NCBI GenBank assembly: GCA_030018895.1
Contig: JASEHM010000001.1
Span: 2,199 to 66,198, forward strand
From: Candidatus Omnitrophota bacterium
Lineage (GTDB): Bacteria > Omnitrophota > Gorgyraeia > Gygaellales > Profunditerraquicolaceae
Direction of reading: 5' to 3'
DNA length: 64,000 bases
The notes under the pieces were generated by a model. That model searched no databases. It was not told the DNA's origin and saw nothing but the letters and a program-made list of their open reading frames with translations. How positions within the stretch are numbered: position 1 is the first letter of the stretch; each line of letters opens with the position of its first letter. Made by a program: the position numbers and the translations under genes. Below, one piece after another: positions 36,001 to 63,000 of the stretch.

Positions 36001-39000
36001 TTGCGCATTCACCAATTTGTAGAAAAGGCCTTCAAGAGCACAGGTGAAATATCCAAAGGTATTATCCATGTGAATGAAGAGGGCTTTGTAATAGACACAG
36101 ATTTAGATAAAGCCAAACAACTTCTTGCCAATAAATACAGGCTCTTAGTAGAAGACCAGTATATTCTTATGAACACTGCCTTTGCCATATTAGGCCCACT
36201 TGCCCTTGTGCGCTGGGCGATTCTTTCAGGCATTGACATAGATACAGAAGGTAATTTTATCATTACAGAAAAAGCCAAGGCTTCTTACAACACAAAGAGC
36301 TTTTATGACTTAGTCCTAACCTATGGCTCAAGTGTAGATACCTTTGGTGATTTAGTGCCTCCTATGGGCGAAGACTTAAATATCATTGACTTTATCTTCT
36401 CTGTTGGCACCAAACAGCTTGAAGAGGCCAAGAAGAAAATCCACGCTGAAGCCTTACCTATCATAGAAGACATGGAAGGTAGGCTACAGGATTTACGCCG
36501 AGACTTCAAAGAAGATAGTTTCTCCTTGAAAAAATTAGAGGACAGTTTGAATAGCCTCTTAGAATCTCTTAAGAAAAGAATCCAAGAGGTTCAGGATGAG
36601 AAGACTGTTTCTGTGTTAAATGTCTGTGTATCTAGCATCTCTCAAATCCTGCTGCGTCAGATGCTCATTGAGGTTTTACGCCGCGGTGGCGCTGGCTCAA
36701 AAGCATGGGCTATACCCATAGAGGGTGAGTGGTTGGATACTGGAAGAACCATCGAGGAAGCACAAATCATTCTGGCCGAGGGAAAAGCCAACAGGCAGAT
36801 AGCCTCGGTGTTTGACTTTGAGAAGTCCATTGCCGCAAAGACCAATGTAGCAAGCCACTCTTTTGTCAGCATCATTGAGGCAGAACCTAAATCTCAAGTT
36901 GCCACAGATTCCATTCAGATTGCCTCTTATCTGAAAGGCAAAATTCATATGGACTCCAGATCTCAGGTGCACCTTGTAGACTGGCAAGGCGATTTACACC
37001 TCAACTCAGACGTGGTGATGTCTGAGGCAACCACCAGATATCAAGAGAAAGAATGGGTCGTGCACCTGCTCTGGGGATTACAGGATGGAGAGACCAATAA
37101 AATCAAGACCCACATAGGCCGTTCCTTAGAGGAATGGTTCACTGAGTTAAGTATTGACATAGATAAGATTTGGCCTCCTGCAACTGCGCATCTCTTAAAC
37201 ACTGCCAGAATCTTCCCTGGCTTAAGTCAGCAGATTTTAGAGCAAGGAAAGCAAATAGATGACTTGGATAGAGAGCTCTTTGACTCTATGAATGATATCT
37301 GGGGCTTCTTACAAGGACATACTGCCCCAGTTCCTGTTGCCTGGCTGAAAGCTTTAGAAGCAGAACGCCTCTTCTCTATGACTGATGCCTACAGTAAACC
37401 CGCCACTGAACTGATGCAACAGAGAAGAGAAGGATTGATGAGGAAGAAGAAAGCAGAAGAGAGACAGAATGCAAAAGGCTCGTCTCCGGTAACGACTTCT
37501 TCACCTATTCCAACTCTAAATAATACTCAGCCAGATCAAATAATAAATACCGATAATGCGAACAACGAGCGCTTTGGCATTGCCAGAGAGCTTACCAAGG
37601 GCTTGGTAGCAGAATTACCCCAAGTATTAGGTAAGGTAGATATCTACGAGTTACTTAAAGCAGCTAATGGCATTCTGATTCTTGACCGTAACCGCTCACC
37701 CACTGACATAGATGCTCATGCGGATAAAGAACGTAACTCTATTTGCGTCACTGTGCGTTCTGATGAAGACTTCCTTAATTTATCTATCCCAGAAGTAGCT
37801 ACCACCCTTATCCATGGAGCCATAGAGCTTGCCACAAAACAAGAAGCCTTAAGACGTAATATCGATTGGGAACAAATCGCATCGCTTGCCCAACAAACTG
37901 CCCTTAACTTTGCCCAGAAATATCAAGAAGTCATTACCCACAGATATGACCGCTTGCTGATGAGACAAGATATGCAGGTTGCCTTTAAAAATGGCTGGCG
38001 CGTAAAGAAGATTTACCAGACTGCCTTTAACCATGTTCAGGCTGATATGTATGCCTCCCAGGTTAATCCTGAAGATTATCCTCAAGACACTGAAGTCATC
38101 CCTGTAGCGGACCCCCCTCCTTATTATAATAAGGTAAGGGCTTTTGGTAATGGCTTAGCTAACCTGAATATAGTAAGGAACTTTGTAGAAAGGCTAATCC
38201 AGGAATTAAAATTAGAGCCGGGAACCTATAATTTAGTAGAACTTCTGGGTAATACCTTAATTATCGGCTTGCACGGTGGCGGCCAATCAGCCAGGAATCC
38301 TAAATATACCCAGATTGGTAAATTTAATGGTTATCTGCCTATAAGGAGCTTAAACAAAGACTTACCCGCTACCCTGCAGGAAGAACTCCTGGTGCCAGCA
38401 GCGGTCTTAAGCAGAATCTATCCAGACAACTTACCCGGCTACATCAATATCTACGGAGATGCCTTAATTACCTTTAATCCAAGAGAAGTAGAAAAAATTA
38501 TTAAGGCTAATCCTGAAATGGCCCAGGGTTTGATGATCTTCTTAAGAAAAGTTCCTGCTCGCGAAGCTTCTACTTGGGGTGCAGGTGCCGTAGATGAATC
38601 CTTGCGCATTCACCAATTTGTAGAAAAGGCCTTCAAGAGCACAGGTGAAATATCCAAAGGTATTATCCATGTGAATGAAGAGGGCTTTGTAATAGACACA
38701 GATTTAGATAAAGCCAAACAACTTCTTGCCAATAAATACAGGCTCTTAGTAGAAGACCAGTATATTCTTATGAACACTGCCTTTGCCATATTAGGCCCAC
38801 TTGCCCTTGTGCGCTGGGCGATTCTTTCAGGCATTGACATAGATACAGAAGGTAATTTTATCATTACAGAAAAAGCCAAGGCTTCTTACAACACAAAGAG
38901 CTTTTATGACTTAGTCCTAACCTATGGCTCAAGTGTAGATACCTTTGGTGATTTAGTGCCTCCTATGGGCGAAGACTTAAATATCATTGACTTTATCTTC

Positions 39001-42000
39001 TCTGTTGGCACCAAACAGCTTGAAGAGGCCAAGAAGAAAATCCACGCTGAAGCCTTACCTATCATAGAAGACATGGAAGGTAGGCTACAGGATTTACGCC
39101 GAGACTTCAAAGAAGATAGTTTCTCCTTGAAAAAATTAGAGGACAGTTTGAATAGCCTCTTAGAATCTCTTAAGAAAAGAATCCAAGAGGTTCAGGATGA
39201 GAAGACTGTTTCTGTGTTAAATGTCTGTGTATCTAGCATCTCTCAAATCCTGCTGCGTCAGATGCTCATTGAGGTTTTACGCCGCGGTGGCGCTGGCTCA
39301 AAAGCATGGGCTATACCCATAGAGGGTGAGTGGTTGGATACTGGAAGAACCATCGAGGAAGCACAAATCATTCTGGCCGAGGGAAAAGCCAACAGGCAGA
39401 TAGCCTCGGTGTTTGACTTTGAGAAGTCCATTGCCGCAAAGACCAATGTAGCAAGCCACTCTTTTGTCAGCATCATTGAGGCAGAACCTAAATCTCAAGT
39501 TGCCACAGATTCCATTCAGATTGCCTCTTATCTGAAAGGCAAAATTCATATGGACTCCAGATCTCAGGTGCACCTTGTAGACTGGCAAGGCGATTTACAC
39601 CTCAACTCAGACGTGGTGATGTCTGAGGCAACCACCAGATATCAAGAGAAAGAATGGGTCGTGCACCTGCTCTGGGGATTACAGGATGGAGAGACCAATA
39701 AAATCAAGACCCACATAGGCCGTTCCTTAGAGGAATGGTTCACTGAGTTAAGTATTGACATAGATAAGATTTGGCCTCCTGCAACTGCGCATCTCTTAAA
39801 CACTGCCAGAATCTTCCCTGGCTTAAGTCAGCAGATTTTAGAGCAAGGAAAGCAAATAGATGACTTGGATAGAGAGCTCTTTGACTCTATGAATGATATC
39901 TGGGGCTTCTTACAAGGACATACTGCCCCAGTTCCTGTTGCCTGGCTGAAAGCTTTAGAAGCAGAACGCCTCTTCTCTATGACTGATGCCTACAGTAAAC
40001 CCGCCACTGAACTGATGCAACAGAGAAGAGAAGGATTGATGAGGAAGTTGAAGAAAACCTCATCCCCTATTTCCACCCCTATTTCTAACTTCTCAGATAT
40101 AAAGACATTAATAAAAGCTTGTAGAAATGCAAATCCACAGGCAAAAATATTTGTTCCAGAGAAATCGAGTTTTGGAAAACTCTCTTTAAAAGAAATTCTC
40201 AGTTTAACAACCTCCAGTTCCCTGATACTTTCCTTAGAATCTAGACTAGTAGCAGCCATCGCCAAGAAGAATTCTTTTATCCAAGGCTCCAGCCCGCTTT
40301 CAGAAGTTATCCTGCCTGGTTTAACGTGGGGATTTTATGTTTTTGAGATTCGCGAATCAAAGGTAGGTGGAATTGCCGATGTCGCTGAAGGCCTTCCGGA
40401 AGCAATAGTAAGGGCTAAGACGCTTGATGGAAAGCCTCATACAGTTTATCGGGTGACCCCGTATTATAGAGATATATTCACTATGACTAATAAAATTCGT
40501 TTGGAAGACCAGAAATTAGTAGCTCAACTATGCATTCCTTATCAGCACCAAATAATTACTGTGGATGTATATAAAAGATTGCATGTTTCTAATATGGTTG
40601 ATTATCTGCTTGTAAACGAAATATTTAGCCGCCCATATGATAAATCAGATACCAAGAATCAAACTGAATCTGAAGAAGAGGTAGTAATATTTAATATTGT
40701 TTCAGCAATACTCATTATTTTAGGGGAAACTCAACCTGATGTGCTGCTTCTATCAGATTGGCAGACAGGTTTACTGCTTTCCTATTTAGAAGAAAGTGTT
40801 TCAGAGCCAACCGCGATATTAAGGAAGGTTGTTGTTAAGACAGAGAAAGGCAATGTTTCTGGTGAAGAATTAGTAAACGAATTTGTACGTTTAAAAGTAT
40901 ATGAATGGATGATACCGATTTGTTGGATTAATAATGAAGCTTATAGAGGGCAATTTCCTGTAAAAAATAGAGCGGACTTTAAGGCAAAAACAGGATTAGT
41001 TTCTCAGCATGGCTTTGAGTATGCAAGATGGATTACCCCAACAAGAGAAAGCGAACAATTTATGATTATGCTTAAGTTAGGGATAGAAAGCACTAATCGT
41101 TGTGGAGGAAAAATAGTCACAGTTAGCCAGGCTTATGCCAGAGAAATTATGGGTATAAACCTTAAACCAGAAAATCATCCTGGGATGCTTCACGGTATTT
41201 TAAAAAGAACAGAGGTTACAGGAATACTAAACGGCACTCCTAAAGAATGGAAATACATTACGGATTTAAAACAGAAGAGAGAGGCGAAGCGGTTGTTACA
41301 AGAAATATTAGAGTTAGATAAGTTTGCCTCTGCAATGTGCGGAGGGGAAATAGAACGATTAAAGCGAAAAAATTTTTGCTGTTTGGGAAAACGCTTGCGT
41401 TTTAGTTATAGTTATCTTAGCTCCTTGCCTTCTGGCTCCTTATTATACCTCGCCGTGGCTGGTGGGATACAAGGCGTTGTTGGTTCAAGCCAGAGGGCAG
41501 GGAGTTTTTTGATAAAGGAGTTTATTAATAAGGTAAAAAAATTATTACCACAAAAAGGAGGCGCAGGATGTATAGACTCAGAGAGGTGCAGATTAGGTCT
41601 TTTGAGGTGTTGCAGGAAAACAAGGGAATTTTTGTTCTGGCAGGGTTTCCGGGTTGGCATTCTACTTATGATTTCCTTATTCAGTCTAATGGAGAAGTTA
41701 AGGGAAGAACACACGATAATTGGCAGCTCCTTACAGATGAGACAGCTGAGATTATTAAAGGGAAGTTTAAAGAGGTACTTACAAGGAATTGATTTAGCGT
41801 TTGAAAGCAGCTCGGCGAGGTTGACGCAGGCACAGAAAAGAGTTACTAACTCGCCGTTAAGGTTGGAGAAAGAAACAGAAAAGATAAACAAAAATTTGAA
41901 TGAGCTTACGAAAAATGCAGTGGCATTATCAGACCAAAAAAAATTTTCAATTGAGGAGGATATACTTCTTATTGAGACTAACCTTAAGGAAATAGGGCGG

Positions 42001-45000
42001 TTGGGGTCTTTAGCAGAAGATTCACAAAAAATAGAAAATGACATTGATTTTATTCAATTACTCAATGAGGTAATAGATGATTTTAAAAAGAGGTTTCCTG
42101 ATATTACTTTTGTGGTTGAGAATAAGGCAGATGAAATTAAATTACCTGGTATTCGAAAAATAATAGAACACATCTTAAGGGAAATTTTCCAGAACAGTGT
42201 TAAGCATGAAGGTAAACAGATTAATATAGAGATTTCAAGAACAGAAGGCAAAATAGAGATTAGTATAGAGATTAGCATAATTGATAATGGTGAGGGTATT
42301 TCTAAAGAGAAACTGGAGAGGATTCGTAAAGTTTTGGCGCAGGCAGATACAAAGCAAAGCGAAAAAGAGAGTAGGGGCAGAGGCCTTTCTTATTTAAATA
42401 AACTTCTTTATGAGTACACTTTAATTGAAGAAAACCTAGAAATATATTCTGAAGGTGAAGGCAAAGGCACAAGGGTAAGATTCTTTTTACCTTTAGCTCA
42501 AGAAAAATACAGGGTGCCAGATATTCATAATCGGATAAAATTTATTATCCATGAGATAAACAATATTCTATGTACAGTGCAAAAAGCTTTTTTAAATGAA
42601 AAAAATACTGTGTTGGCAGATGCAACCAAAGGCACAATTTTAGTAGTGGATGATGAAGAAAACATTTGCGTCATATTACAAATGTGTTTCGAACAAGTTG
42701 GTTATACGGTTGTTACTGCTGCCACAGTAGAACAAGGATTGGAGACTTTCAAAGAAAGGCAGAAAGAAATAGGATTAGTTTTAATAGATTATACATTACC
42801 TGGTGGAGATGGATTACAATTAACAGGGAAGATTAAAGAGGTTTCTAAAGATATTCCTATATTTATTATGACAGGAAGGAGTCTACGCGAAGAAGATATT
42901 TTAAACTCAGGAGCAAAAGAAGTAATTCCTAAGCCTTTTAAATTTGAGGAATTACTAAAAAAGGTAGAAGAAGCGGTAACAGTTCAGCGTTCAGAAGTAA
43001 ATCAGGGTGTCATTCTCGCCCCCGTTTTCACGGGGGTAAACTCCAGCGGGAATCCAAAGATGGTTGACAGAATGGATGCCAGTTTTCACGGGTATGACAA
43101 AAACGGGAGGCGAGAACTTCCGGAAGCTGAACTGTTACAAGAAGCGGTATCTTCAGCAGTAGAGATTGTTAAAATGTTGTCATTGCGAGCCCGCCACACT
43201 TTGTGGCGAGGCGAAGCAATCACTTTTTTGAGATTGCTTCTTGCTTCGGTTTCGCCTCGCAATTGCAATGACGCGAAAATGGATTTTTTCAGCGTTTTCC
43301 TAGAATATCACTTGATACAACAAGCCTTAAAGGGTTTTTTCGGTCGACTTAATTCAGACTTTTCTAAACAACTTTTAAGCTCTCGCCAAACAATTCCTTT
43401 AGCAGGTTCTCCTTTTACAGAATTAGTTTCTAGTTCTTTGTTTGTTTTTAGTCTAACAGAGGCTATTAAGTTGATTCAGATTTTTGTTAAGGAGAAGGAA
43501 GGGGCTGAGATTGGAGAGAAGATAGGGAGCCTTAGTTCTGAAGAACTAAACGTCCTTACGGAAGCGATTATTGCTTGGAAAGAGTTGGAAGAGATTGAAG
43601 TAGGAGAGAAAGAAAAGAAAAGATTCATTGATATCTATTCTTCTAATTGCCAGTTCAGTAGTTTTGTTGGTTTTTTAAAAGATGCTATGCAGTCAAGGTT
43701 AGTAGAGCAGAGGGCAGAAAGAGAAAGTATTCTTTATGAAATTGTCGAGGAAATTGGGAAATTAGAGGGGGTTAGCCCGGATAAAATAGAGGAAGAGTTC
43801 GCTAGATTTAAGATGAAGGCATTAGAGGAGCTTCTTAAGGCATGGGGGTATAGCTATGAGATAGATGAGGAAGATAACTTAAGCCTTATTTGTTCAACAG
43901 ATGGACTAAAGGAGTCGAGTTATAAATTAACACCGCGAAAGCCTAATGACCCGGAAAAGAGTTTTCTTTGGGATTTTCTTAAAAAGTATTGGGAGCAGAA
44001 AAATACCCTTTCTGGGCAAAAGAAATTATTGGAAGGATTTAAGAAAAAATTGCCTATAGAGATAGTAGAAGTAATTATCTGGGATGGCGTTTTTCGGGGG
44101 CTATGGATTAAAGATAGATTCGCCTTTCTTAAGAAATTTTATCCGGAAAAAGTAGATAATGGAGTTTTAGATCAACTTGCCTCTGGCCATATCTTCTCAA
44201 GATTACAAAATATTTGCCTTCCTCAAAATTTAAAAGACGACTTAACTTGTTATCAAGGAGTTTTGCCTAAAGAGCTTATTTTTCTCCTTCCTCTCCCGGG
44301 AAAAGGAAAATATATTTATATGTTACATAACTGGGCTCAGGCCAGTATTGAAAATAAGCAATTTATCCCTCTAATTAAAGAAAAAAAGATTTTTTTCTAT
44401 TTGTTTAGGGCAATAGATGTCATTATTAGAGAAAAGGAAAAGATAAAACAAAGGATAACTGATAGCCGTACAGGTTTGTATAATGCCTGGTATTTAAAAG
44501 AAGAGCTGGAGAGACAAATAGGTTTGGCCAAAAGGCATGATAATCCCCTGGCGATATTAATGCTGGACATAGATCATTTTAAGAATTTTAATGATACATA
44601 TGGCCATTTAATAGGCGATATGGTTTTAAAGTATGTTGCTGAGGTGTTTAAGAGGATGGCAAGGAAAACGGATATTGTTTGCCGTTATGGCGGGGAAGAA
44701 TTTATGATTATCCTGTCTAACGCGGATTTAGAAGGAGGGGTGGTTGCCGCAGAGAGAATTAGGGAGGCGGTGAAAGAAATGAAAATTAAAAATATTAATG
44801 AAAAAATAACTATAAGCATTGGCGCAGCTTCTTTAGATAAGAGTTTAAGAAGTATCTCTGACTCTGAACAATGCCAAAAGGCATTTATTAAAGAGGCTGA
44901 TCAGGCGGTTTATATAGCCAAGGCAAAGGGGAGAAACCGAACAGAATTTACTATAAAACAGGTAATCCCTTATTTAGAGCCGGAAGAAGAATTATTTCCT

Positions 45001-48000: not shown

Positions 48001-51000
48001 CAGGTAAATGCGATTATAAAATTAGGCCTTTTTGGTGCGGGTTGGACATTGCCAATAAACTTATGGAAATCCGGATGGGAAATATCGTATAAAATGGAAA
48101 ATAATCTTCCTTTAGAAGAACAAATTGTTTTGCATGCGCTGGAACAGGCCATAGAAGAAGAGTATCAGAGGCTTTGTAAGAATAAGGAACTCTCTACTAG
48201 AAATATAATGAGTATTCTTAGAAATGAAAAGATTCAGATCAGAGAATATCTTCCTGATAGCTGGAAGGATTTAGCTAATGTGTATAAAGGGAGCCTGAAA
48301 AATATTTATTGGCAGATTTTTGAAAAAGTAGAATTTCCTCATTATTTTCTTAAAGATATAAGGCCTTTGTGTGTCCTGTGTTTTTATTATCCGGATTCAC
48401 TATATCTAGCAGATGCTTCTTTAAAGGGCAAAATAGTTAAAAATGATGTAGTCGGTTCTGTTGAGCAATCTATGAATAATTTTAGGAATACCCATGTGGG
48501 AATGGTGGTTGAAACAGAAAAAAAAGAGTTTTTTCATCCAGCAGGGACGCAAAAGATCGCTTTAAAGGAATTTTTAAAACAAAAATATGGCTTACAAAAG
48601 GACTCTTCATTAGATGCCCTGCTTATTTATTCCTTATATCAAGGAGAATACAAAGAGATAATATTAAATGAAGAAGGGGAGGGATTTTGTTTTGTTGATC
48701 AGGCTATTAATTGTCCTGTTATCTGGAAGCCTGGGGTATGTATAAAAGTAATTTCTCAGATTGTTATTCATGAATTTGCAGGAAAAGCAAGAATAGAGAA
48801 TTTAGCTAAAACTATTGATGACGACAAAGAAGGATTTAAGTTATGCGCGGTAATAAGGCTGGATGAAAAAAGAATCGAAGAGCTGTTTAATGAACAGGGC
48901 AACAACAGCCTAATAGATACGCCCCCTAAAAAAACAAATTCGCCGCTATATAAACAGCTGCCTTGTTTTTCGTCTTCTCCTGTAAGAACTTTCGCACATA
49001 ACCCTGCTGAAGAGTTAAGCGGTGAGGGTTCTAAATTAGAAGAAGGTATAAGAGAAACTGGTGAGTATAAAAAAAGAATGAGGCATATTAGAATAGTGGA
49101 TTTTAAAAGAGAGATTATAAAAAAAGATTTTATGAAAATAGATCCGGAATTAAAAAGCGCTCAAGTGGATGAGATAAATATTTTGGAATTAGGAAAAGGG
49201 CAGGAGTTTATTTTTAAAGATGTTTTGCCTATAGGTGAACTTTATGAATTATGCAATATTTCGGCTCGTTTGGCTGCAAGGTCTTTGAGATATTTAAGTA
49301 AGAATAGGAATAACTTTAATATTTTTAGAAAGGTATTGGCTGATTTGCAATGGATACGGAGAATTTTAGGAAAAGATCTTAAGTATTTTTATTCAGTATC
49401 TTGCGCAAGGACAAAACCTGGTCAGGCTGGATTGGAGCCAGGAGAGATACTTGGTTATGGAGAAAATAAGATTTGCATGGTTTATTTGCCTTTAGAGTTT
49501 TCCCAGGGATTAATTACTTCTGGCTGGATGGGAACAACAATTGGGTTTTTGTTTGCCAAAGATATAAAAAACTTGCCGCCAGGATACTTTTTTAAGGTAG
49601 TAACTCCTAAGAAGATAAACCTAAGCGAGATTTTAAAAAAACATTACGGTAAAAAAGATTTCTGTTCTTTGGTATTTAAGGAAATAAAGAAAGAAATACC
49701 TGAATTTAGGCCGCTTGTTTTGTTTAGAGAGTACAATCTTCCCGTAATAGAAGCGATATCCGGAGAAAAGGTAGAAGATTATTCAGCATTAAAGAAACGG
49801 CTGGAACGTAACAAGGGAAGGCTTTGGTATAAGGGTATGCTTCTGGTGCTAAATGATGATTGGTCAAGATTAGATTTAGGATTAGGGGAGAAGGTTAATG
49901 GGGTTATGGGTATAGGAGGCATGCCTCAGGCATTGTGGTCAGCAGCGCAAATATTAAAATTAGAAAAAAAGAATTTAGATTTTGCCGGTTTTTTTGTAAC
50001 TGAAAAAGGCGGGTTGCCCTGGGAAAACACTTTTTTACTTGAAGAAAAAGAAATATTCAAACGATATGGAATAACCTTGGATACAGTTTTTAAGGCAAAA
50101 GAGTTGATTCCCTGCCTGCCAGAGGAAATATTAATGATTCTGAGCGTAATAACCCCTTATCGTTTCAAAGATAAGATTATCCCTGGGCCAAAAATAGATG
50201 ATAGCGGAAAAGAGACAGTTCATATAGTAATGGTAGATATAGATGGAGGTATATTAGACATCCCTGTAACTTATACAACAGGGATTTGTTTTAATCGTAA
50301 CGTTAAGAAGATTTTAAGCCTTGCTGAATTTGGTTTATTTTTTCCGGGGCTAGAAGAACTTAAGAAACTAAAAGGCCTTAATTTGTCTTTTATAGAATAT
50401 CGAATATTAAGGTATTACCTCTTAGGATTATGGAGTTTAAATTTTAGCCGAAAAGACCCTAATCAAAAAGCTTTAAAAAGTTTTGAGCAGGCCATTGAAT
50501 TAATAATAAAACATAACATTAAAATATTCAAAGGGTTGAATTTATCAGGAAAAATAGCCAGGATTTACCAATTTTTAAGAGATGAAGAAGACAGAAAGGG
50601 AAATCTTGAGAAAGCCTTAGAGTCTGCTGAGCTGGCAGTTAAGCATAAAACAGATTTGGAAACAGTGAGGAGGTATTATCGTTTATTGTTAAAAGATGTT
50701 GTATCCGGCTATAAAAATGAGAGTGATTTAGAGAAGGGTTTAGAAAAGCTGTCCCAGCTCAAATGTCCTGGCTTAGAAAACAAAGATAAAGATTGTTTAT
50801 TTTTTGCTTTCTTGCTAGAGACATTCCTTTTAGAAAAGCATCCTCTTGAACAGGTTAAAATTGTAAAGGGGCTATTAAGATATAAGCAGGAGCAGATAGG
50901 AAAAGATGGCAGATTAGTAGATTCATTTTTAAAAAATAACAACCCGGGCATTATTTCTTGGATTAATAATCTTCAGGAAAATTTTATGTTTAAGATATTA

Positions 51001-54000
51001 AACTTTCGTTTCTTGGAGAGGCTGGGATATTTTCCTGTTACAGATACTCAATTGAACCATTTTTCTCGAGAAGTTCAGGACTTACTGGATGCGCATCTGG
51101 AGTTGGGCATGATGCCTCAAGAGGCAGTCTTTTCTTTAGGAAGCATGTATTATTTGCAAGGAATATTTTTGCTGGCTTTAGATTATAAAGAAATGGCAAG
51201 AAAAAATATCAACAAGGCTATTGACCAATTTGGTTTAATTATATTTAAAAAGGGGGGTCCTTTTGGGCTGATGGCATACCAATTAATTCTAGAAATTCAT
51301 CAAGAGATGCCGTTATTCTTTGGCCAGCTTATTCACAATGGTGGAATGGAATTAACGTTAGATGGGTTAGCTGAAAAGTATGGGAAACATTGTCCTGAAG
51401 AGATTATAAAAGGCCAGACAGAGTTCATAAAGAATTTGACAGAACAGTCCCAGTCGGAGAATGAACTCGCAACTTCTTCTTCTGCAAGGAGTTGTGTAGA
51501 AACGGTACTATTAAATTCACTAAACTCTTCAAGCCCTGTTAAGCGGGTAGGTCCTGTTGGATCCGTCTCGAAATTTGAGTCTCTGCTACGAAAAGAGTTG
51601 GCCGCGATGAAGGATTCCGGGGGAACGAAGTTGTACCCGTCCAATGTGTCGCGTCAGAATAGGGTCACGATTGCGCCGTGTCGGGTGGATAGGGTCACGA
51701 TTAGTAAAGAGGCCCGGGAGATATTCAAAAATGCAAGGCCCAAGTCCAGCCAGCCGTCGATCATGTCGGAAAAAGACCTTAACGGCAATCTTGATTTCAT
51801 ATCGTCCCTGTGTGAGTTCGTAAAGCAGTTTATAGAGGTATTTTGGACAGTGAAATCTTCTGAGGATACGGATCACGAGAACAAGGATGGCGTTTCTGCG
51901 TCTTCTGTCAAGGAAGGATCTTCTTCGGTCGTTTATTCCAGCAGTCCGAAGGCTTCTTCCTCATTTAAGCAGGCACGAAGCCGCGCTCCGCCCTTTGTAG
52001 TTGTGTTATTAATAGTTCCCTTCATATTTTGTGAAGGAGAGACAAGGAATTTATCAAAATCCCTGCCCCCATCTTTACCTTCGTTTTCAAAGCACAGTAG
52101 AGTTCTTGAAACAAAATCTCTACCCACATCTTTATCTTCGTTTTTAGATCATAGTAGAGTTCCTCCCCTTTCAAATTACAGTGGAGTTCTTAAAAACGCG
52201 CGCATTAATTCAAAAGATCGATTTGGAATAAAGGCATGGACAGCCTATACAATGTTGGATGAGATTACTAAGAAGCTGTATTCTGAAAAAACAGTATCAG
52301 AGCGTCGTTTAATAAATAAATACGTATTAACCAATATTTATCATGAATCGCTTTTGATATATAGGAGGCCTATATATCGTGGCGGGACTGAGCGCGGCTT
52401 GGCTCAAATAAAGGTGGGCACTGCCAGGGATATCCTTGAGAGGCTTGTAAAGGGAAAAGCTAATTGGGAGGAGTTTATTGCAGATATTAGCGGTTATTCC
52501 TTCTATGCAGACCTTTTAAACGAGAATAATGCTGTTCTTGGCAAGATGTTAGAAGATAATGATGGGTTTAGTTTTATTCTTTCAACAATATATAGTATGA
52601 ATAGGTTAGATAAGGAATCTCTGCCTGTAGATTTAGAGGGGATGACAAAGTGTTGGGCCAATTATAATGGGATTGGGAAAAAGCAAAGAACGCCTCCAGA
52701 GGAAAAAAGATTAAAGGATTATAAAGTTCATGCAGAGATAATTAAGCCTATTCTTGAAAGAATCATTTCTTTAGAAAGGTTCTTAAATTTTGAAGAGTTT
52801 CTGAATCCTCCAAAAAATATTGGAAACTGTTTCCGTCCCAATCGGGAAACTGTTTCCAGCGCAATCGGGACAGTGGGATGCAGTGAAGTTGACATAAGCT
52901 GTTCTGCTTTGAAAATGAAGGGGTTTGTCGGTTCGCCAGTTAGCCGGTTGCTTGAAATTGCCGGCTCGCCGGTGAAATATAGCTTGTTAGTTGATATGTT
53001 GTTAATACTTGTTGATTTTGATGGTTTTTGCAAGGCAGGGATGGAAGATGTTCACGGTCTTGAGGATAGGATTAGGGTCTCCTCGCCCGTATTTTCGATA
53101 CCGAAAGATACCGAAGATTTGGATTTTGCTTGGAATTTGATGGAATTAAATGCTTTTAACCCCGGATTAGAACATAAAATTTCTTTTGTCTCCAGTCCAA
53201 TTTTTAAAATGCGGCCGAAGGTAACAGTTCAGCGTTTGGAAGTTCCAAGCGCTGAACTGTTACCTTCGGAGACTGAAATTGGGGGTAAGAAAAGGAAGGA
53301 AGAGAATGATCTTTTTATTGAGATGGATACGTTAAAAAAGAAATTGATGGGTTGTCTTAGAAAAAGTCCTTTACTTGCAAAAATATTACAATGGATTTTA
53401 GATGAATTAGAAAAAAAGAACAATAATAATGGAATCATAAAAAATAAACTGTCTTTTTTTAGTCCACACCAGAAGCGTAAAGTAAAACAAGAAATTTTTG
53501 CTTGGATGAATAAGGAGCATTGTGAAGTGGCAGCCGAGTTTTCTACGGAGTTAATTTTTCTAGTTGTGGATTTGGTTAAAAATATAATCTTTTCTATAAA
53601 AAACGAAAAAATAAATAAAGATAAATTAGAGGAGATTCAGTCTTCTTTGGATGAGATTGTCGCTTTGAATAACAAGATTGAGAAAATAGCGGAACTGTGG
53701 CGAAAGATAAAAGAGGAGATAGTGGAACAAAATGTAGGCATAGTAACATCTATCGTGACTAAAAACTATTTTAATGGGGCTTTATTCTTTGAGGAGCGGA
53801 TACAGGCAGGGTTGATTGGGCTAGCTGAGGCTGTAGAGAGGCACGACTACAGAAAAGGTATATTATTTTCTACCTATGCTGATTGCTGGATTAAGCGGGA
53901 AATACTAATGGTTATGCAAAAGGAGAGTAGTGATATCTGGATTCCCGTGTATATGCAAGAGAAGCATACAGGGCTTGAGAATAAAAAGACAGAATTAATC

Positions 54001-57000
54001 CAGAAACTTCTAGGAGACCCGACAATTGGCCAACTTGCTCAAGCCTTAGGATGGCCAGTTGAGGAAGTAAAAGAAGTTTTAAATGTTCCGATGCATGTAG
54101 TTTCTCTATCTACACCTGTGGGTAAGGAAGGAGAAACTTCTCTTGGCGAGCTTATAGAGAGTCCACAGGCACGGGATTTGGAGGGTTCAATCATAGAAGA
54201 ATTGAGTGCTGAACGGCCTGAAGAGACCCTTAAAAAGGCCTTGCATCAACTTCTTCTCATCGATAGGCTAATTGTATGTTTGCATAATGGCTTGTCTATT
54301 ACTGGAGAAGTAGTTAGCAATGAAGAAATTAATCAACTTAAATCATCTATTAAAAAAGAAGCACTAAATAAGGCTATTATGAACATGAACCCCTTAAGTT
54401 ATCGCAAGATTGGTGAGCTATTGGGATACACCGGGGAACGCATACGTCAACTCAAAAAACAAGCGTTACTAGATTTAAAACAACTAATAGGGGGAGGTAT
54501 AATCTTAACCGATAGTATGATACTTAGCAAAGTTAAGCCTATTAAGAAGATCCCTGGTGTAATCAGAATTTTAATGGAAGAAAAAGGAATTATTATTCCA
54601 TCTATGGTTGTTAAGTCGTTAGGGATTTCTATTCCGACACTTACTAAATATATTAAAGATAATCCTTCTGATGAGATAAAAGATTTGATGAGGCAGCTAG
54701 GTATTCATAATCAGATTCTTCGGGCGATAAAAAGGCTAGAGAGGCTGCCCAAAGCGAAACAAAAACTAATTACGGTAAAGATGCTTGTTCAAGAAATAAA
54801 GTTTTTTTCTTTAACAGACATAGAAAAAGCAAAAAATGAAATAAATAAACGTATAGAAAAACATCTCGGGGCGAGAAAAGAAATATTAAAACATGTGGGA
54901 GCGGTGCCAATATTCAATTGGGAAACTGTCAATTGGGAAACTGTTTCCAGCTTAATCGGGACAGTGAGACGCAAGGTCAAAATCGCCGGCTCGGAAGTGG
55001 ATTTATCTCTAACTTCTTCTTCCGTAAGCAGTTCCGTTATTAATTCAGCAGGCCAAAGCAACAACGCGCCGGAAAAAATTGAAATAATTGAATTTTCGTT
55101 TCTGAAAAATACTATGGGTTGTATCATAGAAGCTGGTAAAAGAGATATGCAAAAACAGAAGATTGAGAAAATTTTGATTTTGCGTAATTTAGGATTTATT
55201 TTAAAGGAACTAAAAGAGTTAAAGAATATGAATGCTATTTTGAATAAATGGGCCATAGAAATTATTATAAGGTTTAGAAGACAGCTTATTGAAGAATTTA
55301 GAAAAACAGAGAATTCTATTTCTAATGGCAAAGAAAGCAGTAATGACATAAATATTAAGGAGCAGTTTAAAAAAATAAATATTAGAGAAAAAATAATATT
55401 AAATTTTTATTGGGTAGGAAAGAATCGGTGCTGGAAGATTTTAGAAGAAGGATTGAGTAAGCCTTGGTTTATTCCTGATATTGGAAGAGTGGATGAAGAG
55501 CTGGTGCAGGAGAAAAAAAGAAAAGAGGAGTTGATAGCCACCATCTTAGGGCAGTTACAAACAGGCACAATGATTCAACGTCAGATAGAAGAGGAGCAAG
55601 ATTTAAGACAATATATACCGCGAATAAAGATAAAGATTGAGTCTGCGGAAGAAAATCTGGGAGAGGCAGCAGTATGGGCAGAGGAGGTTTTCGCAAAAGG
55701 AGTAGATAGTTTTAAAAAAGATGCAGATACAGTGGAGAATAGGCAACTCAAGGCATTTGCTATGGAGTTAGGGGGCGTATTGGAGAATATGATTTGGCTG
55801 GGAGTTCGTGCTTATGATTATCAAGATGAAGAGACGATAGATTTTATAGGTAAGGCCAAAAAGGAGGAAATGATTAAAGATTTAGTCAAAGGATTGATAA
55901 GTAGTATTGATCAAGGCCTTAGTAAAGAGCCTGAAATTATGCAATATACTTTGCAAATTATAAGACAATATTTGCAGGGGCTTCTTTTAGAGGATTTAGC
56001 CTTAGGATATGAAAACGTGCTTATGCAAAAAAGGGTTAAGTATGCATTAAGAGAAGCATTTATAGGTTTCAAGAGGCTAAAAACAGAGATGCTTGATTAT
56101 CTGCATGAGCTTTTGAAAGAAAAAAAAGAAAAAGTAGATGTTAATAAGTATTTCAAAGAAGGCATTGAAAGAATGCTTCAGGGTATAGGAAATTATCTTA
56201 TTAATAAAGTAGAATATCAAACAGCGCATTATGAAGGAGAAGACTCAGTGATTTTAAAATTGAATTATATACCTACTCCACAAGAATTTTTAAATTGCTT
56301 TATAAAGGTTTATGGCAAAAAATTGGCTGCAATTATTACTTGTGCAGGAACGCCGCAGGCACATTATGCTTTGTTGGCTGAGTCTGAAAGAATACCAGTT
56401 TTTATTATTGCCAGGGAAGATACGGATTTAATTAAACAAAATGATAAAGTTGTGATTTTTAGTAATGGAGAGGTGATTATTAATCCTAGTCCGCAAACAC
56501 AAGACGAATTTGCCGTTGCACAAGGAGTTCAACAAAAGATTGACGAATTTTATAGTGAAAAGGCGCCGGAGTTGTTAAAAATACCGGTTGAAATGAACGC
56601 TGATTCTAAAGATGAGATAGAAGTAGCAGTGAATATTGTCCAGGGTATTGGCCTGGTAAGGACTGAGAACTTATGCCAGGGAATTTTACCTTTTTTAATT
56701 ACTGAATGGCAGGATTTATTCAGGGAAATTTTAAAATCTGCAAAAGGAAAAAGAGTTACTTTTAGAGTCATTGATTATCAACCGGATAAAAAGCCTTTGC
56801 CTTTTGCTTATCAACGCTACCTAAGGCCTAAATGGTGGAAAGATCATCCCCTGGGCAGAGCAGTGGCATTACAGATATTACAGGCTCTCATCAGATTGGG
56901 AAAAGAAGGGTATGGTTTTTTTCGAGTAATGTTTCCTATGGTAGAAGATGTTAGTGATTTGCAGGCAATAGAGCAGATAATAAAAAAAGCGCAAGAGAAG

Positions 57001-60000
57001 GAAGGCCAAGGGACAGAGCTTACTATAGGCATTATGGTAGAAACTAAAAAGGTAGTTAATAATATAGATCTAATAATTAAGACTATAGAGAAAATCCCCG
57101 CAATAAAGTTTTTTAGTGTTGGATCCAATGATTTAATTCATTTCTTTTACAATATCCACAGGGATAATCTCCAAGATTATAAAAAGTATTATGAGGGGAT
57201 TGCCCCCCCGCTTATTCTCAAAAAGATTTTAGAAGTTGTAAAAAAAGCCAAGGAAGCCGGTTTAGAAAGTAGTTTATGCGGAGACTTAGCAAGGAATGAG
57301 CAATTCTGGCTGGTCTGGTATTATTTTAAGCATAATTATAATGTAGAAATTCTTTTAAGTATGCCGGATATAAAGATCGCAGAGAGATTTAAGGTTTGGA
57401 TAAATTATATTGATAATCATTTAGAGCAGATACCATGCTGGAAAAACTTAACTGATTTATTAAAGAAGATGTTTGTTTATAAATATGATGATGAGATTGA
57501 TGAAAAATATTGGGATGCGTTAAAGAAACAACTAAATGCTGTGATTAGCGAAATACAAGCGGTTTTAAATAAGGCTATAGAGAAAGACAAAAATGTAAAG
57601 ATAGAACTAAAAACAAAAGAAGAACTGCCTAAAGCAGAAGAGGAGAAAAAGTGGTCTGATAATGAAGGTAATATAATTGGGTTATTAAAAGGTTTCCATG
57701 CTTATGCCCAGGGTCATCTAAGTGGTTTGATTAACTCATATTGGGAGAAAGAGTTGCGAGTAAAGATAGAGTGTTTAAAAGAAGAGCAATGGCAGGAGTT
57801 TTATGATGGTAGCGTTTTATGGGACATATTTGATTTTATGGAAGCCGAATTTATTGTGGGTAGTTCTAAAGAATTTAGATTTAGCGCATCTGAGCATTGT
57901 TCATTAGGCAAAGAAAAAGCAGACTCTCTTTTGAAAGGGTTTTTAGATGAGTTTGTAAAACAGCTTTGCGGAAAAGACGATGAATTTGGAGGCAGAAGGT
58001 TTGATTTAGAGGTTCAAGAAGAAGATGCTGTAAAAGAAACAGAACAAACGCAATGTAATAAGCTCCCCCTAGTAGAGATAGTACGTATTTTTGAGATCAA
58101 TCCAGGCAAAAAAGCGGCTTCTTCTCTGATGTCGCTAGAAAAGCATGTGGTGGATATAAAAGAGTATGCGGATATAATAGCCAGGCTTTTGCTTTGCAGT
58201 ATGAAATATAAGGGGAATAATAGAAACGAGTTGAATTGCTATTCTCTACGCGCTGATCTTATTCAAGTATTACAAGAAAAGCTTGGTTATGACAAGATAA
58301 AAAATATAAAAATTATAGGAATGAGCGGTGGGCGTAAGAAGTTGCCTCTTATACCAATAGATACGGAATTGGGGGTAGGCCCTGAGAAAATATATTACTT
58401 AGGGTTGCCGCTTGATAAATTAGGAGGATTGGGAGACCCTCATCAGAAAGGGCCTATTACTGGCCATGCATGGTGCTCAAAAAAAATAAATAGTTTGCCG
58501 GATTGTTATTTCCTTAAAATTGAGGTTGGTTTTAACAAAAATGCTGAAAAATTAAAAGCTCTTATCACTAATAATATAAACCCATGCATTGGAAAGGTTG
58601 ACTGGGATTCATTAGCTAAGGGTTATCTTGAATTTTGTTTAACAGGATCAGGTAAATCCATAAAAGATCTTAAGATAGGGGTTTTGTGCCGGCCTTATAA
58701 CCGGCAGTTAATTGAGGCATTGATAAGGGCTTTTAAAGCCAAAGGCGCAGGTGTTCCAATTAAAGATTATGTTCGGATAGCCAAAAAATGCAAGAGACAA
58801 GGTTCATTTAATAATGGCGGGATTTTTCTTTATCAAAATGACGATTGGTCAAGTAGTATAGATATGGATGAGAAAGATGGTTTAGATGGCTTTATGGGAA
58901 TAGGCGGTTATCCTGAAAAAGGAATGAGCAGCTTGATAATTAGAAAAAAAGGTAAAGGGGCATTGACTGGCCGTTTTATCAGCCAGGAGTATATTGAAAA
59001 AACAAATAGAGCGGTAACTGCGCCAGAACCTTTTGTCCTGACGAACTTTAGTCCTGGGGAGTTGGCAAATTTTGATAAAACGGGTATTAAAACTGAAAAT
59101 AAAGAGCATCTCAGGGTTTTTACTGACAAGGATATTATCTCTGCGGATATAAAGGGAGAAGATATTATTTTACTAATTGGGTTAATCGGAGATGCTGCTT
59201 ATTTTGGCTGTCGTATTTCAGGAATTACTGTGGATGCTCGGAAAGGATATATAAAAGCCAATCTCTTAGAGATTAATGAGAAAAAGAAGGCTTGTGTAAT
59301 TGAAATAAAATACCCTTTAGTATCTATTCAAAAATATTTAAAAGAGCTTTCTTATGCAAAAGATCCAAAAGTTTATAAAAAGTTAGCTTTTGCCTGCGCT
59401 GAAGCCGGGGACTATCATCTGGCAAATGAATATCTTAAGAAGGCTCTCAAAGACAAAGAGTCTCAAATATTATTTTACTATATTAGGGGTATGAACATTC
59501 AGGCGCAGAGTAAAATAAACCCTAATATTAGGGCATTAAGACTATATATGAAGGCTTTTGCGATTTGGAAAAAGCTGGTTCCTCAAGGACAAGCAGCGCT
59601 TGAAGAATTAGGTTTGGACCTGATAAAAACGATTCGGCGCACCCGGGTTTTCTTAAGAATTCAATACCAGCTTAAAGGAAATTGGCTTGAAGCAGTAAAG
59701 CATTCTTGGCCAGCAGTAAGGATTTCACAAGAGGAGTTTGAAACCATTTTTCAGCATAATCGGCTTGTTTTAATGTCCATTGTTGAAGAATATTACAGGC
59801 TTATTAAAGATGTAGACGAATCCAATATTAAAGCCAAGATTGAATTAGCCTATGAAGCATATCTTAATTGGGAAGAAAAGGCAACGAATAAGACCAGATC
59901 TTGCATGGAGGATTATAGAAAATTTTTAGAATTCTATCAAGGAGATTTCTTTGTCTGCTTGCTTTTTGAAACTGTTTTTAGGGGATTTAAATCTTCTGAA

Positions 60001-63000
60001 AGGGCAATTATTTGTTGGAAGATTTTGTATATGAAATTAAATAAAAACTACCGCGAGGATTTATTATGGGTTATGCGGAATGAGTCTGAAAGAAATAACC
60101 TTATAAATGATTTAAAGCAGACAATAAATTTTACCGATGAAGAAAAAGAAGATTTTAGGATTCCTTTAGAAGAAGGGATATCTACTCGTACGAGCAAAAA
60201 AATTCTTTCCCAATTATTACGGTTTTATAGTAAAGAACCAGTTATTTATTTAAGGAACCAGGAAGTAGCTTATAGTATATTTAGGCAATATTTTAGCGAA
60301 GCGCTGTTTTTAAGAATCTTTGGTCATTTTCAGAGCAGCCAAAAACATGTTGAAAAAGCTATCCATGCCTGCGAGCAGATATATAAGGTAAAGGATTTAG
60401 GCCTGTTTATGACAACCTTGCCAAGGGATACAATCAATTTTTATCTAAGATTAGCTGATATAGAAGAAAATTCAGATAGAAAAAAACAATTCTTGCAAGA
60501 GGCGCAAGGATTGTGCTGCGGGTTTTTAACTGGTGATTATTTTAAAGAGATTATAGCAGAAGCTGATTCCCAATTAGCTTCTAGAGAGTTTATTAAATTA
60601 ACAGCATGGAAACCTGAAAGTTTGTGGGAAGGCCTTGCAAAAACTTCATTAGAAGGACTGCTTAGGAAAAAAATTCAGCTATATGTTTTTGATATGAATG
60701 GGGTCAAGAATATTCAGAAAAAGATAGAAGAAATATTATTTAAAAAATCAATAATATTCTTCGGAGGGACAAGCAGAAGAGCAGGCCTTAAACCACTTCG
60801 CAATTATCCTGTTTCTACTAATATAAATATAAAAACATCAGAAATAAATCAGGATAATGTTTTTTTATCTATTGACCTAAAGAAAAAGGTAGACTATTTT
60901 AAGGGAATAATTTTTTCTATCTTACTTGAAAAGAAATGTGAAGAAAATTGGGATATAAAAGGCAAAATAATTCCCTATTTTCAAGGGCCCTTGATATTAA
61001 TAACAAAAAAGAAAGAGCAAATTCCTGAAGTATGTAATGATTTGGTAGAAGAATTACAGGGGGCCGTTGAAAATCAATATACAGTAGAGACAACAAGTAT
61101 TGGTATGGAAGTTTCGTCGATTGACCGAGGAGATGTACTGCTTTATTTAGCAGAGCAGATTGCTAATAAAGACAAAAAGAACCTTATAGATTTATTAGTG
61201 CAAACCTTTGTCGTAGGCAATAGCCGCGCAGATCTATTTATGCTCAATATTGTAGCCAGTCATGGCGGGTTAGCTATATTTGTGGGCCAGAATATTCCAG
61301 AGGGCCTATCTAAAAAGGTTCTTGTAATTCCGCTACAAAATCCTCAAGGAATAGAATTTCTTATAGAGTTAATTGCTAAGGCCTCCAACTCGGCAGGTAT
61401 AGAAAATCATCTCCAGAGCCTGCAAAATTCTGTTAGTGAAGAGGAAACTGTTTCCAGCGCAATCTTGGCAGTGGGATGCAGTGAAGTTGACATAAGCTGT
61501 TCTGCTTTGTTGAAAATGAAGGGGTTCGTCGGTTCGCCAGTTAGCCGGTTACTTGAAACCGCCGCCTTGGCGAAGGGGGATGGGGGTCAGTTCTGTTGTA
61601 ATTCTTTGCCTATCAATGGGGGAATTCTGGGGACACAAGACTTAATTCGGAGTACTGATTTGCCATCCGCTATTGCTATCGCCTCGCCGGTGAGGGATTT
61701 GTTTGCAACTTCTTTTCCCATAATAGATTCCGCAGAAACGACACTAAATATACTGTTTTTATCTCGTTTAGGCGCTCTGCGTACAGGTACAAATGCCCCG
61801 CCATTAGTTGTTAATAATGCCGCCTTTGTCTCGGTATTATTTCGCACCTATTTAGAGACCTCATCACAACCTACCCCTTCTATTACTATTCCAGAACTTA
61901 TTGTCTGCTATTTATTACTTGCTACTATTAAGGTATCCTTTGCTTCGTCGGCGGTGGAGAATTTATCTACAAGTTTTTCTTTCGCAGGCATTTTTTTGAC
62001 TATTAAGAAAGTGTTTAAAGGGTCGAAGATAATAATAGATAAGGTTATTGGAGTCGGCGAAAATGGATATAGAAAAATAGAAAAAATTATCTGGCAATTT
62101 TTACAGAAAGCTTGGCAATGTATACAGAAAATTCCGGTCGGCTTTGCGCCGGACAGTGAAGGCCGGGTTACCGTTGATGCTCTCATAAAATATCTTTCTG
62201 TGGCTCCTTTCGCAGTAGATGCGACGTTGGAAGCCTTCTTTTCGCAATTGAAAAATCCCAAAGCTCAGGCAGCAATTGCTTCCGGTGGCCTTGGTTTTCT
62301 TGCCGGAGAAACCCTTAATGCTTGGGTCAAGGTATCTCAGCGGGTAGTCGGGTTTATGCCTCTTTATGAAGGTAATATTAACTGGGATAGTGAGGCAGGG
62401 ATACAGCCGATTATCGGGTCAGGCGGCAAACCGCTTACTCTGGAAGTCAATTTTAAGGAGGTCGGGCAATTACAGGAGAAGCCATATAAGGTTAGCTACT
62501 ACATTATTAACGCCAATGGCACTCCGGTAATCCTGGCGCGCCAGCCGAAGATTAACTACGCGCTTTATCCTTGTGATTCGGATAAATATCGGCAGATGGC
62601 TTTCTTAGGTAGGGCATATACGGAATTTTTTAAATATTTAGGCGTTGTCCCGGATATCTTGCGCTTCAATGAGGCGCAGGTATTTTTCCTTCTTACTGCG
62701 ACTGATAATGATGTTGATTGGTTTGCTCGGGAGAGAGAGAGAACTAAAACCGAAAGCCGCAGCGTTCATGAGAATACCAAATACATCCTTTTTACCACGC
62801 ATACCCCGGAAGTAGCCGCTTTACCGAGAGAAAACGTAGGCCGGTTAAAGAACCTTATCGGTAGCGGGATGATTCCGAAGAAAGCAGATGGAAGTGATTA
62901 TGCGGATGGGGAAGAATTGGATTTTGTTCATCATTTAGTTAACGACTCGCGGGTCGTCGTTATCAATGGCGTTTCCCAGGAACACGGGGAAGTAACTAAG

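Follow-up and report, generated by a model that had tools for sequence, protein, structure and literature searches.

Sigma-70 regions 2–4 inside a giant open reading frame of a Candidatus Omnitrophota bacterium

What is a sigma factor doing in the middle of a protein of more than 20,000 residues? Sigma factors are normally free, exchangeable subunits, and the known tethered cases are small extracytoplasmic function (ECF) sigmas joined to their own anti-sigma. The question is raised by 64,000 nt of DNA from a Candidatus Omnitrophota bacterium (GenBank assembly GCA_030018895.1, contig JASEHM010000001.1, positions 2,199 to 66,198 of the forward strand; this whole stretch is hereafter the window), in which we confirm that sigma-70 regions 2–4 are real and lie inside one giant open reading frame (ORF). 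The reading that we prefer, with a probability of roughly 0.45, is that they form a functional RNA-polymerase-type sigma module on a cytoplasmic part of the giant protein, which would act either tethered or after cleavage and with altered promoter specificity.

All three regions are recovered by profile searches. A hidden Markov model scan of window positions 53401–54900 with Pfam, in which scores were judged against the gathering cut-offs (GA), bore out the original prediction of sigma-70 regions 2–4 in a giant protein, with each region above GA: Sigma70_r2 (PF04542, 28.7 bits vs. GA 24, nt 53722–53922), Sigma70_r3 (PF04539, 57.1 bits vs. GA 25.3, nt 53986–54174), and Sigma70_r4 (PF04545, 28.1 bits vs. 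GA 24.1, nt 54391–54480). The predicted coordinates, 53690–54480, agree to within ~30 nt at the start and exactly at the end. The Sigma70_r4 match covers profile positions 20–49 of 50 alone, because 28 inserted residues lie between regions 4.1 and 4.2. NCBIfam RpoD-type models match the module at E values of 1.8e-37 to 1e-34, SigA/RpoD chains are the best sequence matches in the PDB (E 2e-30), and the predicted fold agrees with solved sigma factor structures, the AlphaFold2 (AF2) models being confident. A profile of 120 free sigmas finds one site in the giant ORF (aa 17865–18099, 151 bits, E 2.7e-48, together with aa 18128–18161) and no second sigma-like domain anywhere else in it.

The frame that holds the module is open from one end of the window to the other. 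Frame 0 of the plus strand, whose translation we used for all statements on the giant ORF, is stop-free over nt 1–63999 and comprises 21,333 codons with 0/0/0 occurrences of TAA/TAG/TGA. The ORF overruns both window ends, so that 21,333 codons is a lower bound on its length and the predicted size of more than 20,000 aa holds. The module starts ~17,900 residues into the ORF and is followed by at least 3,100 more, and the minus strand beneath it carries nothing but short ORFs of 64–186 aa. A separate sigma gene that only seems fused, through mis-assembly, a frame error, or a non-standard genetic code, is scarcely credible against this background: no stop of the three kinds occurs in 21,333 codons, compared with 1,879 and 2,205 in the two remaining plus-strand frames, all Pfam domains found in the window fall in the same single frame, no start or stop borders the sigma domain, and its flanks are conserved in frame with the one relative described below. 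What favors an artefact is that another part of the window contains a 2.6-kb tandem duplication with 100% identity, which means that assembly quality is not assured. We also considered an internal translation start that would yield a separate sigma and rejected it, as there are weak Shine–Dalgarno-like contexts only and the lack of a downstream stop precludes a discrete protein.

By its sequence, the module appears to be a strongly diverged paralogue of a primary-type (RpoD-like) sigma. RpoD models far outscore the ECF model (E 1.8e-37 vs. 5.6e-14), and the presence of domain 3 and of the 3.2 linker places the module with sigma-70 groups 1–3 and not with the ECF type. Free sigmas are ~30–33% identical to it over the whole domain and reach 41% over a portion (a search with the sigma segment alone returned free sigmas only, at ~30–41% over the matched part), whereas the free primary sigmas aligned with it hardly differ from one another in regions 2–4. 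One might suppose that this is the organism's housekeeping sigma, encoded solely in the giant gene, given that the top-scoring models are RpoD/SigA types. This is extremely unlikely. The module falls far short of the RpoD equivalog cut-offs (129.2 bits vs. 384.5 for TIGR02997, 124.5 vs. 354 for TIGR02393, and 120.5 vs. 555 for NF004208), is without regions 1.1 and 1.2, both of which are present in most free homologues, and keeps 54/111 near-invariant positions; for these reasons we judge that it is probably not a housekeeping sigma. W433, Q437, T440, and R441 are lost as well, and giant-gene copies of SecA are found to coexist with a normal SecA in the same phylum (10.1101/2023.11.21.568195).

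Composition points to a module that has long been resident in the gene. Its GC content, GC content at third codon positions, and codon usage fall inside the range of variation of the remaining ORF, as would be expected of a long-standing part of it, and these host-like values led us to reject recent horizontal acquisition. Across the window, GC content is ~0.33–0.45 and GC skew is positive throughout.

The pattern of retained and replaced residues bears on what such a paralogue could still do. Residues are numbered as in E. coli sigma70, following a mapping that we took as given and cross-checked against the PDB chain range 358–540. In region 2, the hydrophobic face of region 2.2 is retained and N383, Q406, G408, F427, S428, T429, Y430, W434, P453, and E458 are kept; changes comprise R385G, D403E, E407A, N409L, Y425I, and K426L as well as W433C, Q437R, T440L, R441M, R451W, and H455Y. 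Within the −10/extended −10 set (Y430, W433, W434, Q437, T440, R441, R451, H455, and E458), Y430, W434, and E458 are kept. The −10 recognition helix, which had been called unambiguous, is present, with W433, Q437, T440, and R441 replaced; the alignment thus points to a helix that is recognizable and to base-reading residues that are not conserved. The region 3.2 finger motif SL.TP.G....LG is retained, the region 4.2 recognition helix (YTGERIRQ) keeps E585, R586, R588, and Q589 and is changed at R584G, and in region 4.1 RFGL has become HNGL. Conservation of DNA-contacting residues, singled out in the original prediction, is mixed: Y430, W434, E585, R586, R588, and Q589 stand, but W433, Q437, T440, R441, R451, and H455 are gone. 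Retention is selective: it covers the 3.2 finger, most of the −35 recognition helix, and some of the aromatic cluster in region 2.3.

Comparison with a single relative suggests that these features are maintained. An exhaustive HMMER search with the sigma module and its flanks (1,200 aa) against 1.84 billion representatives gave MDI6758612.1 as the top match (E 8.8e-138, 49% identity), followed by ordinary sigmas at E 1e-37 or weaker, and a profile search of 5.8 billion proteins again returned it as the sole relative. Searches of genome and metagenome contigs with an 800-aa segment and a two-sequence profile found no orthologous giant gene and only an ordinary planctomycete sigma fragment, while a scan of viral contigs gave just two distant matches (28–31% identity). 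MDI6758612.1 is a 925-aa protein annotated as "class IV adenylate cyclase," with a title not marked partial, from a 6.1-kb contig of a Candidatus Omnitrophota metagenome-assembled genome. Giant residues 17771–~18305 are collinear with its residues 184–~720 at 49% identity over ~535 residues, in the same order of N-domain, sigma 2-3-4, and C-domain and with the insertion in region 4 at the same site. Identity is 51–60% in folded segments and 20–27% in linkers, as purifying selection that acts on the folds would be expected to produce. Both proteins also share departures from RpoD, namely IWIP.YMQ (R451W and H455Y), GLIGLA, the region 4 insertion, and NGL for FGL (HNGL in the giant and RNGL in MDI6758612.1, compared with RFGL in free sigmas), which suggests a derived but constrained specificity and not random decay.

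The two proteins also differ in several respects. The insertion in MDI6758612.1 is 31 residues longer, its C-domain occurs twice (aa 620–925) and the giant's once, and it retains W433 where the giant has W433C. It begins with a Ser-rich stretch followed by a CYTH domain (aa 1–150), and this upstream neighbor of the cassette is N-terminally truncated, lacking the first ~48 profile positions. The upstream parts of the two proteins are unrelated, so that the cassette behaves as a movable module. MDI6758612.1 resembles part of a bigger giant gene, possibly a broken one, that received an adenylate cyclase annotation; it could be such a fragment or could stand alone as a protein.

The conserved unit is a cassette of ~535 residues (plus strand, nt 53311–54915, aa 17771–18305), whose parts all lie on the plus strand. 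It opens with a helical N-domain (53311–53610, aa 17771–17870) that has a net charge of +6, no family match, and a predicted local distance difference test score (pLDDT) of 50–72, and is 58% identical to MDI6758612.1; the free-sigma profile match begins at aa 17865, within the end of this domain. A long helix before region 2 follows (53611–53709, 27% identical), which aligns weakly to the end of region 1.2. Sigma domain 2, with regions 2.1–2.4/3.0, occupies 53710–53970 and contains the Pfam r2 match, and domain 3, with regions 3.0–3.1, occupies 53971–54099 with pLDDT >90; the 57.1-bit r3 match extends from it over most of the region 3.2 finger linker VSLSTPVGKEGETSLGELIES (54100–54180), which carries SL.TP.G....LG and is 58% identical to the relative. 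Region 4.1 (54181–54300, aa 18061–18100, 60% identical) is separated by the 28-residue insertion (54301–54384), with predicted short helices at pLDDT ~61–66, from the region 4.2 helix-turn-helix (HTH; 54385–54486, net charge +4), which contains the r4 match. The cassette closes with a helical C-domain (54547–54915, aa 18183–18305) of net charge +12 that is 51% identical to the relative. The C-domain gives an HTH_26 signal at E 0.0074, below GA, and a PDB profile search with it returned designed coiled coils only and nothing informative, so that calling it HTH-like is a weak hint from sequence.

Where in the cell the cassette would reside can be approached through hydropathy. A Kyte–Doolittle scan of the giant ORF in 19-residue windows gave 36 segments with a mean of at least 1.7, 7 of them at least 2.2, clustered at aa 5771–6985, 10070–10724, and 11400–11510; it is on this hydropathy scan that the description of the protein as transmembrane is based here. 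Just four weak candidates lie beyond aa 13,600, and there is no strong segment from aa 13,600 to 21,333. The candidate closest to the cassette (aa 17329–17347, 1.78) is weak and lies ~440 residues upstream of it. The neighboring domains need ATP, GTP, or phosphoenolpyruvate (PEP) (HATPase_c, GGDEF, and PEP-utilizers), and together with the lack of a strong hydrophobic segment this suggests a cytoplasmic placement. The same evidence makes very unlikely a role as an effector that is delivered or exposed to bacterial prey or a host and hijacks or blocks its RNA polymerase: nucleotide-dependent domains of cytoplasmic type flank the module with no strong hydrophobic segment between, and no secretion or translocation signal occurs near it. 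To our knowledge, archaea use no sigma factors, and the prey described for V. archaeovorus is an archaeon. That prey is Methanosaeta (10.1101/2023.11.21.568195). An effector would nonetheless suit the predation or attachment proposed for Omnitrophota giant proteins (10.1101/2023.11.21.568195; PMC10066038) and the published localization predictions that put many of their domains outside the cell (10.1101/2023.11.21.568195).

If the module works as a sigma, its contacts with the RNA polymerase core would be made by region 2.2, the 3.2 finger, and domain 4, and it would bind DNA through the region 4.2 helix-turn-helix and possibly the basic C-domain too, with a promoter specificity unlike that of the housekeeping sigma. 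We know of no role for the region 3.2 finger other than in the active-site cleft or RNA exit path of RNA polymerase, and because its motif is kept we infer that the core is bound; a charge of +12 in the C-domain and +4 in region 4.2 would suit binding to nucleic acid. Action could be either tethered, on long flexible Ser-rich linkers, or follow proteolytic release, and would couple the HATPase_c, receiver, and GGDEF domains on the same polypeptide to transcription. An ultra-small cell and long Ser-rich linkers (around aa 17690–17770 and 18306–18345) make tethering plausible. Binding to core and to DNA, a place in the cytoplasm, and tethered or released action are proposals; the ORF, the identity and fold of the domain, the conserved cassette, and which residues are kept or lost are what the analysis shows.

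Binding might also occur with no initiation, the module serving as a dock or decoy that engages core or DNA and localizes or sequesters polymerase at the giant membrane protein, for example, by keeping transcription near co-translational membrane insertion or by titrating core. The core-contacting elements (Q406 with the hydrophobic face, the finger, and domain 4) are indeed better kept than the residues that read the −10 element, a huge polypeptide flanks the module permanently, and domains are conserved against linkers. For a pure dock, however, Y430, W434, F427, S428, T429, and most of the −35 recognition helix would be superfluous, and the co-conserved basic C-domain suggests DNA contact. 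We consider such a dock or decoy unlikely.

A number of observations count against a working sigma module. Substitutions affect the residues for reading or melting the −10 element (W433C, Q437R, T440L, R441M, R451W, H455Y, and R385G) and, in region 2.2, both E407 (E407A) and N409 (N409L), which mutational studies implicate in core binding. The resulting Q-A-G pattern resembles that of some group 3 sigmas, such as FliA, so that these two replacements are not taken as proof of lost core binding. The 54 kept positions compare with 111 that are ≥90% conserved in 120 free sigmas, in which at least 76% (median 99%) of the same positions are kept, and regions 1.1 and 1.2 (PF03979 and PF00140) are not reported at E ≤ 1. 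Region 4 is split by an insertion found in none of the aligned free sigmas, and region 4.2 is the least conserved domain segment relative to MDI6758612.1 (38%), which is itself the single relative of the cassette known from protein searches. Both ends of the module are joined to thousands of residues, and the window yielded no processing-type protease domain, no cleavage motif, and no anti-sigma domain. Finally, "transmembrane" and the topology of the giant protein come from the hydropathy scan alone, and the transmembrane predictions published for such giant proteins are reported to be unreliable (10.1101/2023.11.21.568195).

Repeats at the borders of the cassette raise the further possibility of an evolutionary relic. 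Two copies of a ~130-nt in-frame repeat bracket it: copy A (plus strand, 52822–52971, ~130–150 nt) precedes the cassette and has two occurrences of the palindrome GGAAACTGTTTCC, and a short copy (plus strand, 54925–55000) begins 10 nt past the cassette end, where homology to MDI6758612.1 stops. A third copy (plus strand, 61437–61572) is 89–96% identical to copy A. The core palindrome GGAAACTGTTTCC has 4 exact copies in the window, against 0.1 matches expected at ≤1 mismatch. In addition, a 55-nt near-perfect palindrome (53215–53269, no strand assigned) lies in frame and ends 42 nt upstream of the cassette; it has 27-nt arms and a 26-bp stem with a folding free energy (dG) of −47.9 kcal/mol (ViennaRNA), and is built from a pair of terminal inverted repeats, placed back to back, of a family resembling miniature inverted-repeat transposable elements (MITEs). 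We infer that such repeats may mark or mediate module junctions.

A relic would be an rpoD paralogue swallowed by the expanding giant gene through domain accretion or repeat-mediated shuffling, by now devoid of any function in transcription and kept as a folded spacer whose frame must stay open. The bracketing by MITE-like and other repeats would fit, as would ~30% identity to any free sigma, retention of 49% of near-invariant positions with loss of key −10 residues, the extreme rarity of the module in public data, and the precedent that domains of Omnitrophota giant proteins are generally reported to have diverged strongly from the normal genes of which they are paralogues, SecA being one example (10.1101/2023.11.21.568195). 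Against this, the collinear cassette is conserved in MDI6758612.1 with its domains approximately twofold better conserved than linkers, the finger motif and recognition-helix residues are kept despite having no structural role in the isolated fold, derived residues are common to both proteins, and AF2 models are confident. We therefore regard a relic as doubtful, and at present the data do not separate a working module, a dock or decoy, and a relic. The two roles first suggested for the domain fare accordingly: "captured cargo" finds some support in its being an RpoD-derived paralogue with host-like GC content and codon usage, in a discrete cassette bracketed by repeats, and in the different domain (CYTH) upstream of the cassette in MDI6758612.1, and the data agree equally with a tethered regulatory arrangement, the reading that we prefer. 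The "anti-sigma-like" detail finds no support: Pfam detects no anti-sigma domain beside the sigma in its flanks at E ≤ 0.1.

A working, tethered or released module could be part of something larger. It is conceivable, if rather improbable, that the giant protein is a self-contained membrane-anchored hub for regulation and metabolism, in which an on-board RpoD-derived sigma recruits core to the polypeptide with the sensor kinase, receiver, and GGDEF modules or is excised from what amounts to a bacterial polyprotein. Were this so, an ultra-small cell would have transcription initiation coupled physically to a machine for envelope or prey contact, and the module would be the first case of an internal group-1-like sigma that works as one domain of a larger protein. 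More generally, a three-domain RpoD-derived sigma as an internal cassette of a >21,000-residue protein would extend the ways of organizing transcription initiation. It would also offer a handle on whether Omnitrophota giant proteins are processed into separate products, and on whether their "housekeeping-like" domains are working parts or accreted cargo; at ~535 residues, the cassette is small enough for expression and testing against RNA polymerase core.

The remainder of the giant ORF (plus strand, 1–63999) reads as a multidomain protein with "Archaeovorin"-like Pfam content and hydrophobic clusters. Pfam scans of its translation placed, in order, Helicase_C (aa 3720–3825), with SecA_DEAD not detected by Pfam in the window; Peptidase_M23 (aa 7392–7482, window 22174–22446, E 3.9e-28); two Fucose_pyrophosphorylase/NTP_transferase domains (aa ~11950–12408, duplicated); two Glyco_transf_5 domains (aa 13449–13602 and near aa 20760); HATPase_c (aa 14053–14166); Response_reg (aa 14213–14323); GGDEF (aa 14820–14980); Sigma70 r2/r3/r4 (aa 17908–18160); and PEP-utilizers with PEP-utilizers_C (aa 18773–19101). 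The HATPase_c, Response_reg, and GGDEF domains are consecutive (window 42157–44940, aa 14053–14980), precede the sigma cassette by ~2,800 residues, and by their family matches would form an on-board two-component/cyclic di-GMP signaling unit. Peptidase_M23, a peptidoglycan endopeptidase family, lies ~400 residues past the largest hydrophobic cluster, a position that fits the cell-wall-degrading role proposed for Omnitrophota giant proteins. Immediately upstream of the cassette annotation is sparse: aa 16400–17560 (window 49198–52680; 1,161 residues) have zero homologues in a word-seeded search of 5.8 billion proteins, and aa 17001–17900 contain no Pfam domain at E ≤ 0.1. No Rfam family reaches its gathering score in the window.

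We also observed duplications within the ORF. An unannotated module occurs twice, once upstream of the sigma cassette (aa 16413–16900, 49237–50700) and once downstream of the PEP-utilizing domain (aa 19385–19927, 58153–59781), and at 25–29% identity over ~300 aa this paralogy is old. By comparison, the ~0.9-kaa Fucose_pyrophosphorylase/NTP_transferase module is duplicated in tandem (aa 11570–12506 and 12435–13370, window 34708–40110) with 100% identity over 433 aa and 97.7% over a further 432 aa. At the DNA level this duplication has a period of 2,601 nt and includes an exact 300-nt repeat (34843–35142 and 37444–37743); it is either a very recent event or an assembly artefact.

The MITE-like family extends well beyond the cassette. 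Its terminal inverted 15-mer, GCGCTGAACTGTTAC, occurs 9 times at ≤2 mismatches (0.02 expected in the window), and members are found at 15178–15192, 16400–16690, 19290–19433, 23637–23786, 42972–43260, and 53215–53269, every copy being in frame and free of stops. Full copies at nt 19290–19433 and 42972–43142 fold as single hairpins (dG −83 and −66 kcal/mol), and inner units of the form GTCATTGCGAG...CGAAGCAATCTC make perfect 12-bp hairpins at 16417, 19349, and 43212. The elements encode peptides such as VTVQ..E...SLRGA..TKQS...AELLP and recall the in-frame palindromic elements of Rickettsia. The ~130-nt repeat at the cassette borders is distinct from this family and encodes ETVSSAIGTVGCSEVD... 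A further direct repeat of 150 nt (23637–23786 and 42990–43139, 90% identity) gives peptides that are 77% identical (aa 7878–7929 and 14329–14380); its second copy directly follows the receiver domain, and each copy terminates in a MITE-type terminal repeat.

How does this locus compare with known systems? Giant ORFs are common in Omnitrophota, are poorly conserved, and have many predicted transmembrane helices (10.1101/2023.11.21.568195; PMC10066038; 10.64898/2026.06.07.730766), and they contain fast-evolving paralogues that include the SecA DEAD helicase, PPDK, glycosyltransferases, HATPase_c, receiver, and GGDEF (10.1101/2023.11.21.568195; 10.64898/2026.06.07.730766). The cleavage of these proteins into several products has been proposed from their C39 and S8 peptidase domains (10.1101/2023.11.21.568195). 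Like the "Archaeovorins" (West-Roberts et al. 2023; 2026 catalogue), the giant ORF runs to tens of thousands of residues, and its candidate hydrophobic helices and its mix of domains (glycosyltransferase/starch synthase, HATPase_c, receiver, GGDEF, PPDK/PEP-utilizing, and helicase-type) resemble theirs. This domain content, taken with the taxonomy of MDI6758612.1, fits an Omnitrophota origin. At ≥21,333 codons it has the single-ORF length of Archaeovorin-type giant proteins, and the window contains Glyco_transf_5, HATPase_c, Response_reg, GGDEF, PEP-utilizers, and Peptidase_M23 of their repertoire, with the N-terminus of the gene lying outside the window. The main texts of both papers (10.1101/2023.11.21.568195 and 10.64898/2026.06.07.730766) mention neither "sigma," RNA polymerase binding, nor transcription domains, and none of the Sigma70 Pfam accessions appears in the one supplement searched.

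Among sigma factors embedded in larger proteins, MzaA of the MZA anti-phage system (NF041931) likewise has a sigma-70 core, and its model matches the module at E 2.8e-29. We rejected membership in that family, as the score is 102.5 bits vs. a cut-off of 800 and only the generic sigma core is matched. Pro-sigma-K, with SpoIVFB, is a related case of a sigma activated by proteolysis, and the SpoIVFB:pro-sigmaK complex (PDB 8vjl) is among the structure matches listed. Membrane-tethered sigmas released by regulated proteolysis, such as IutY (ECF243) and the ECF36/48/52/53 fusions, are known for the ECF type only (PMC8999054). The likeness lies in a sigma covalently joined to a membrane-anchored polypeptide, and in those proteins cleavage is what activates it (PMC8999054). 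The known tethered sigmas belong to group 4 (without domain 3) or group 3 and have extensions of tens to ~400 residues with a transmembrane helix close by, whereas the giant's sigma would be group-1-like, is internal with thousands of residues on each side, and has no recognizable anti-sigma domain and no adjoining transmembrane helix. Because its strongly hydrophobic segments lie thousands of residues from the sigma module, the analogy to sigma/anti-sigma fusions is loose. RpoD/SigA (groups 1–2) provide the best sequence and structure matches and the same core of sigma 2, 3, and 4 with the 3.2 finger, but they are free-standing and carry regions 1.1/1.2, while the giant's module is internal, lacks both, and has replaced −10 residues and an insert in region 4. 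That giant proteins collect divergent housekeeping-like domains is already known; what appears to be new here, judging from sequence, is that a giant protein of Omnitrophota type contains a group-1-like sigma as an internal cassette.

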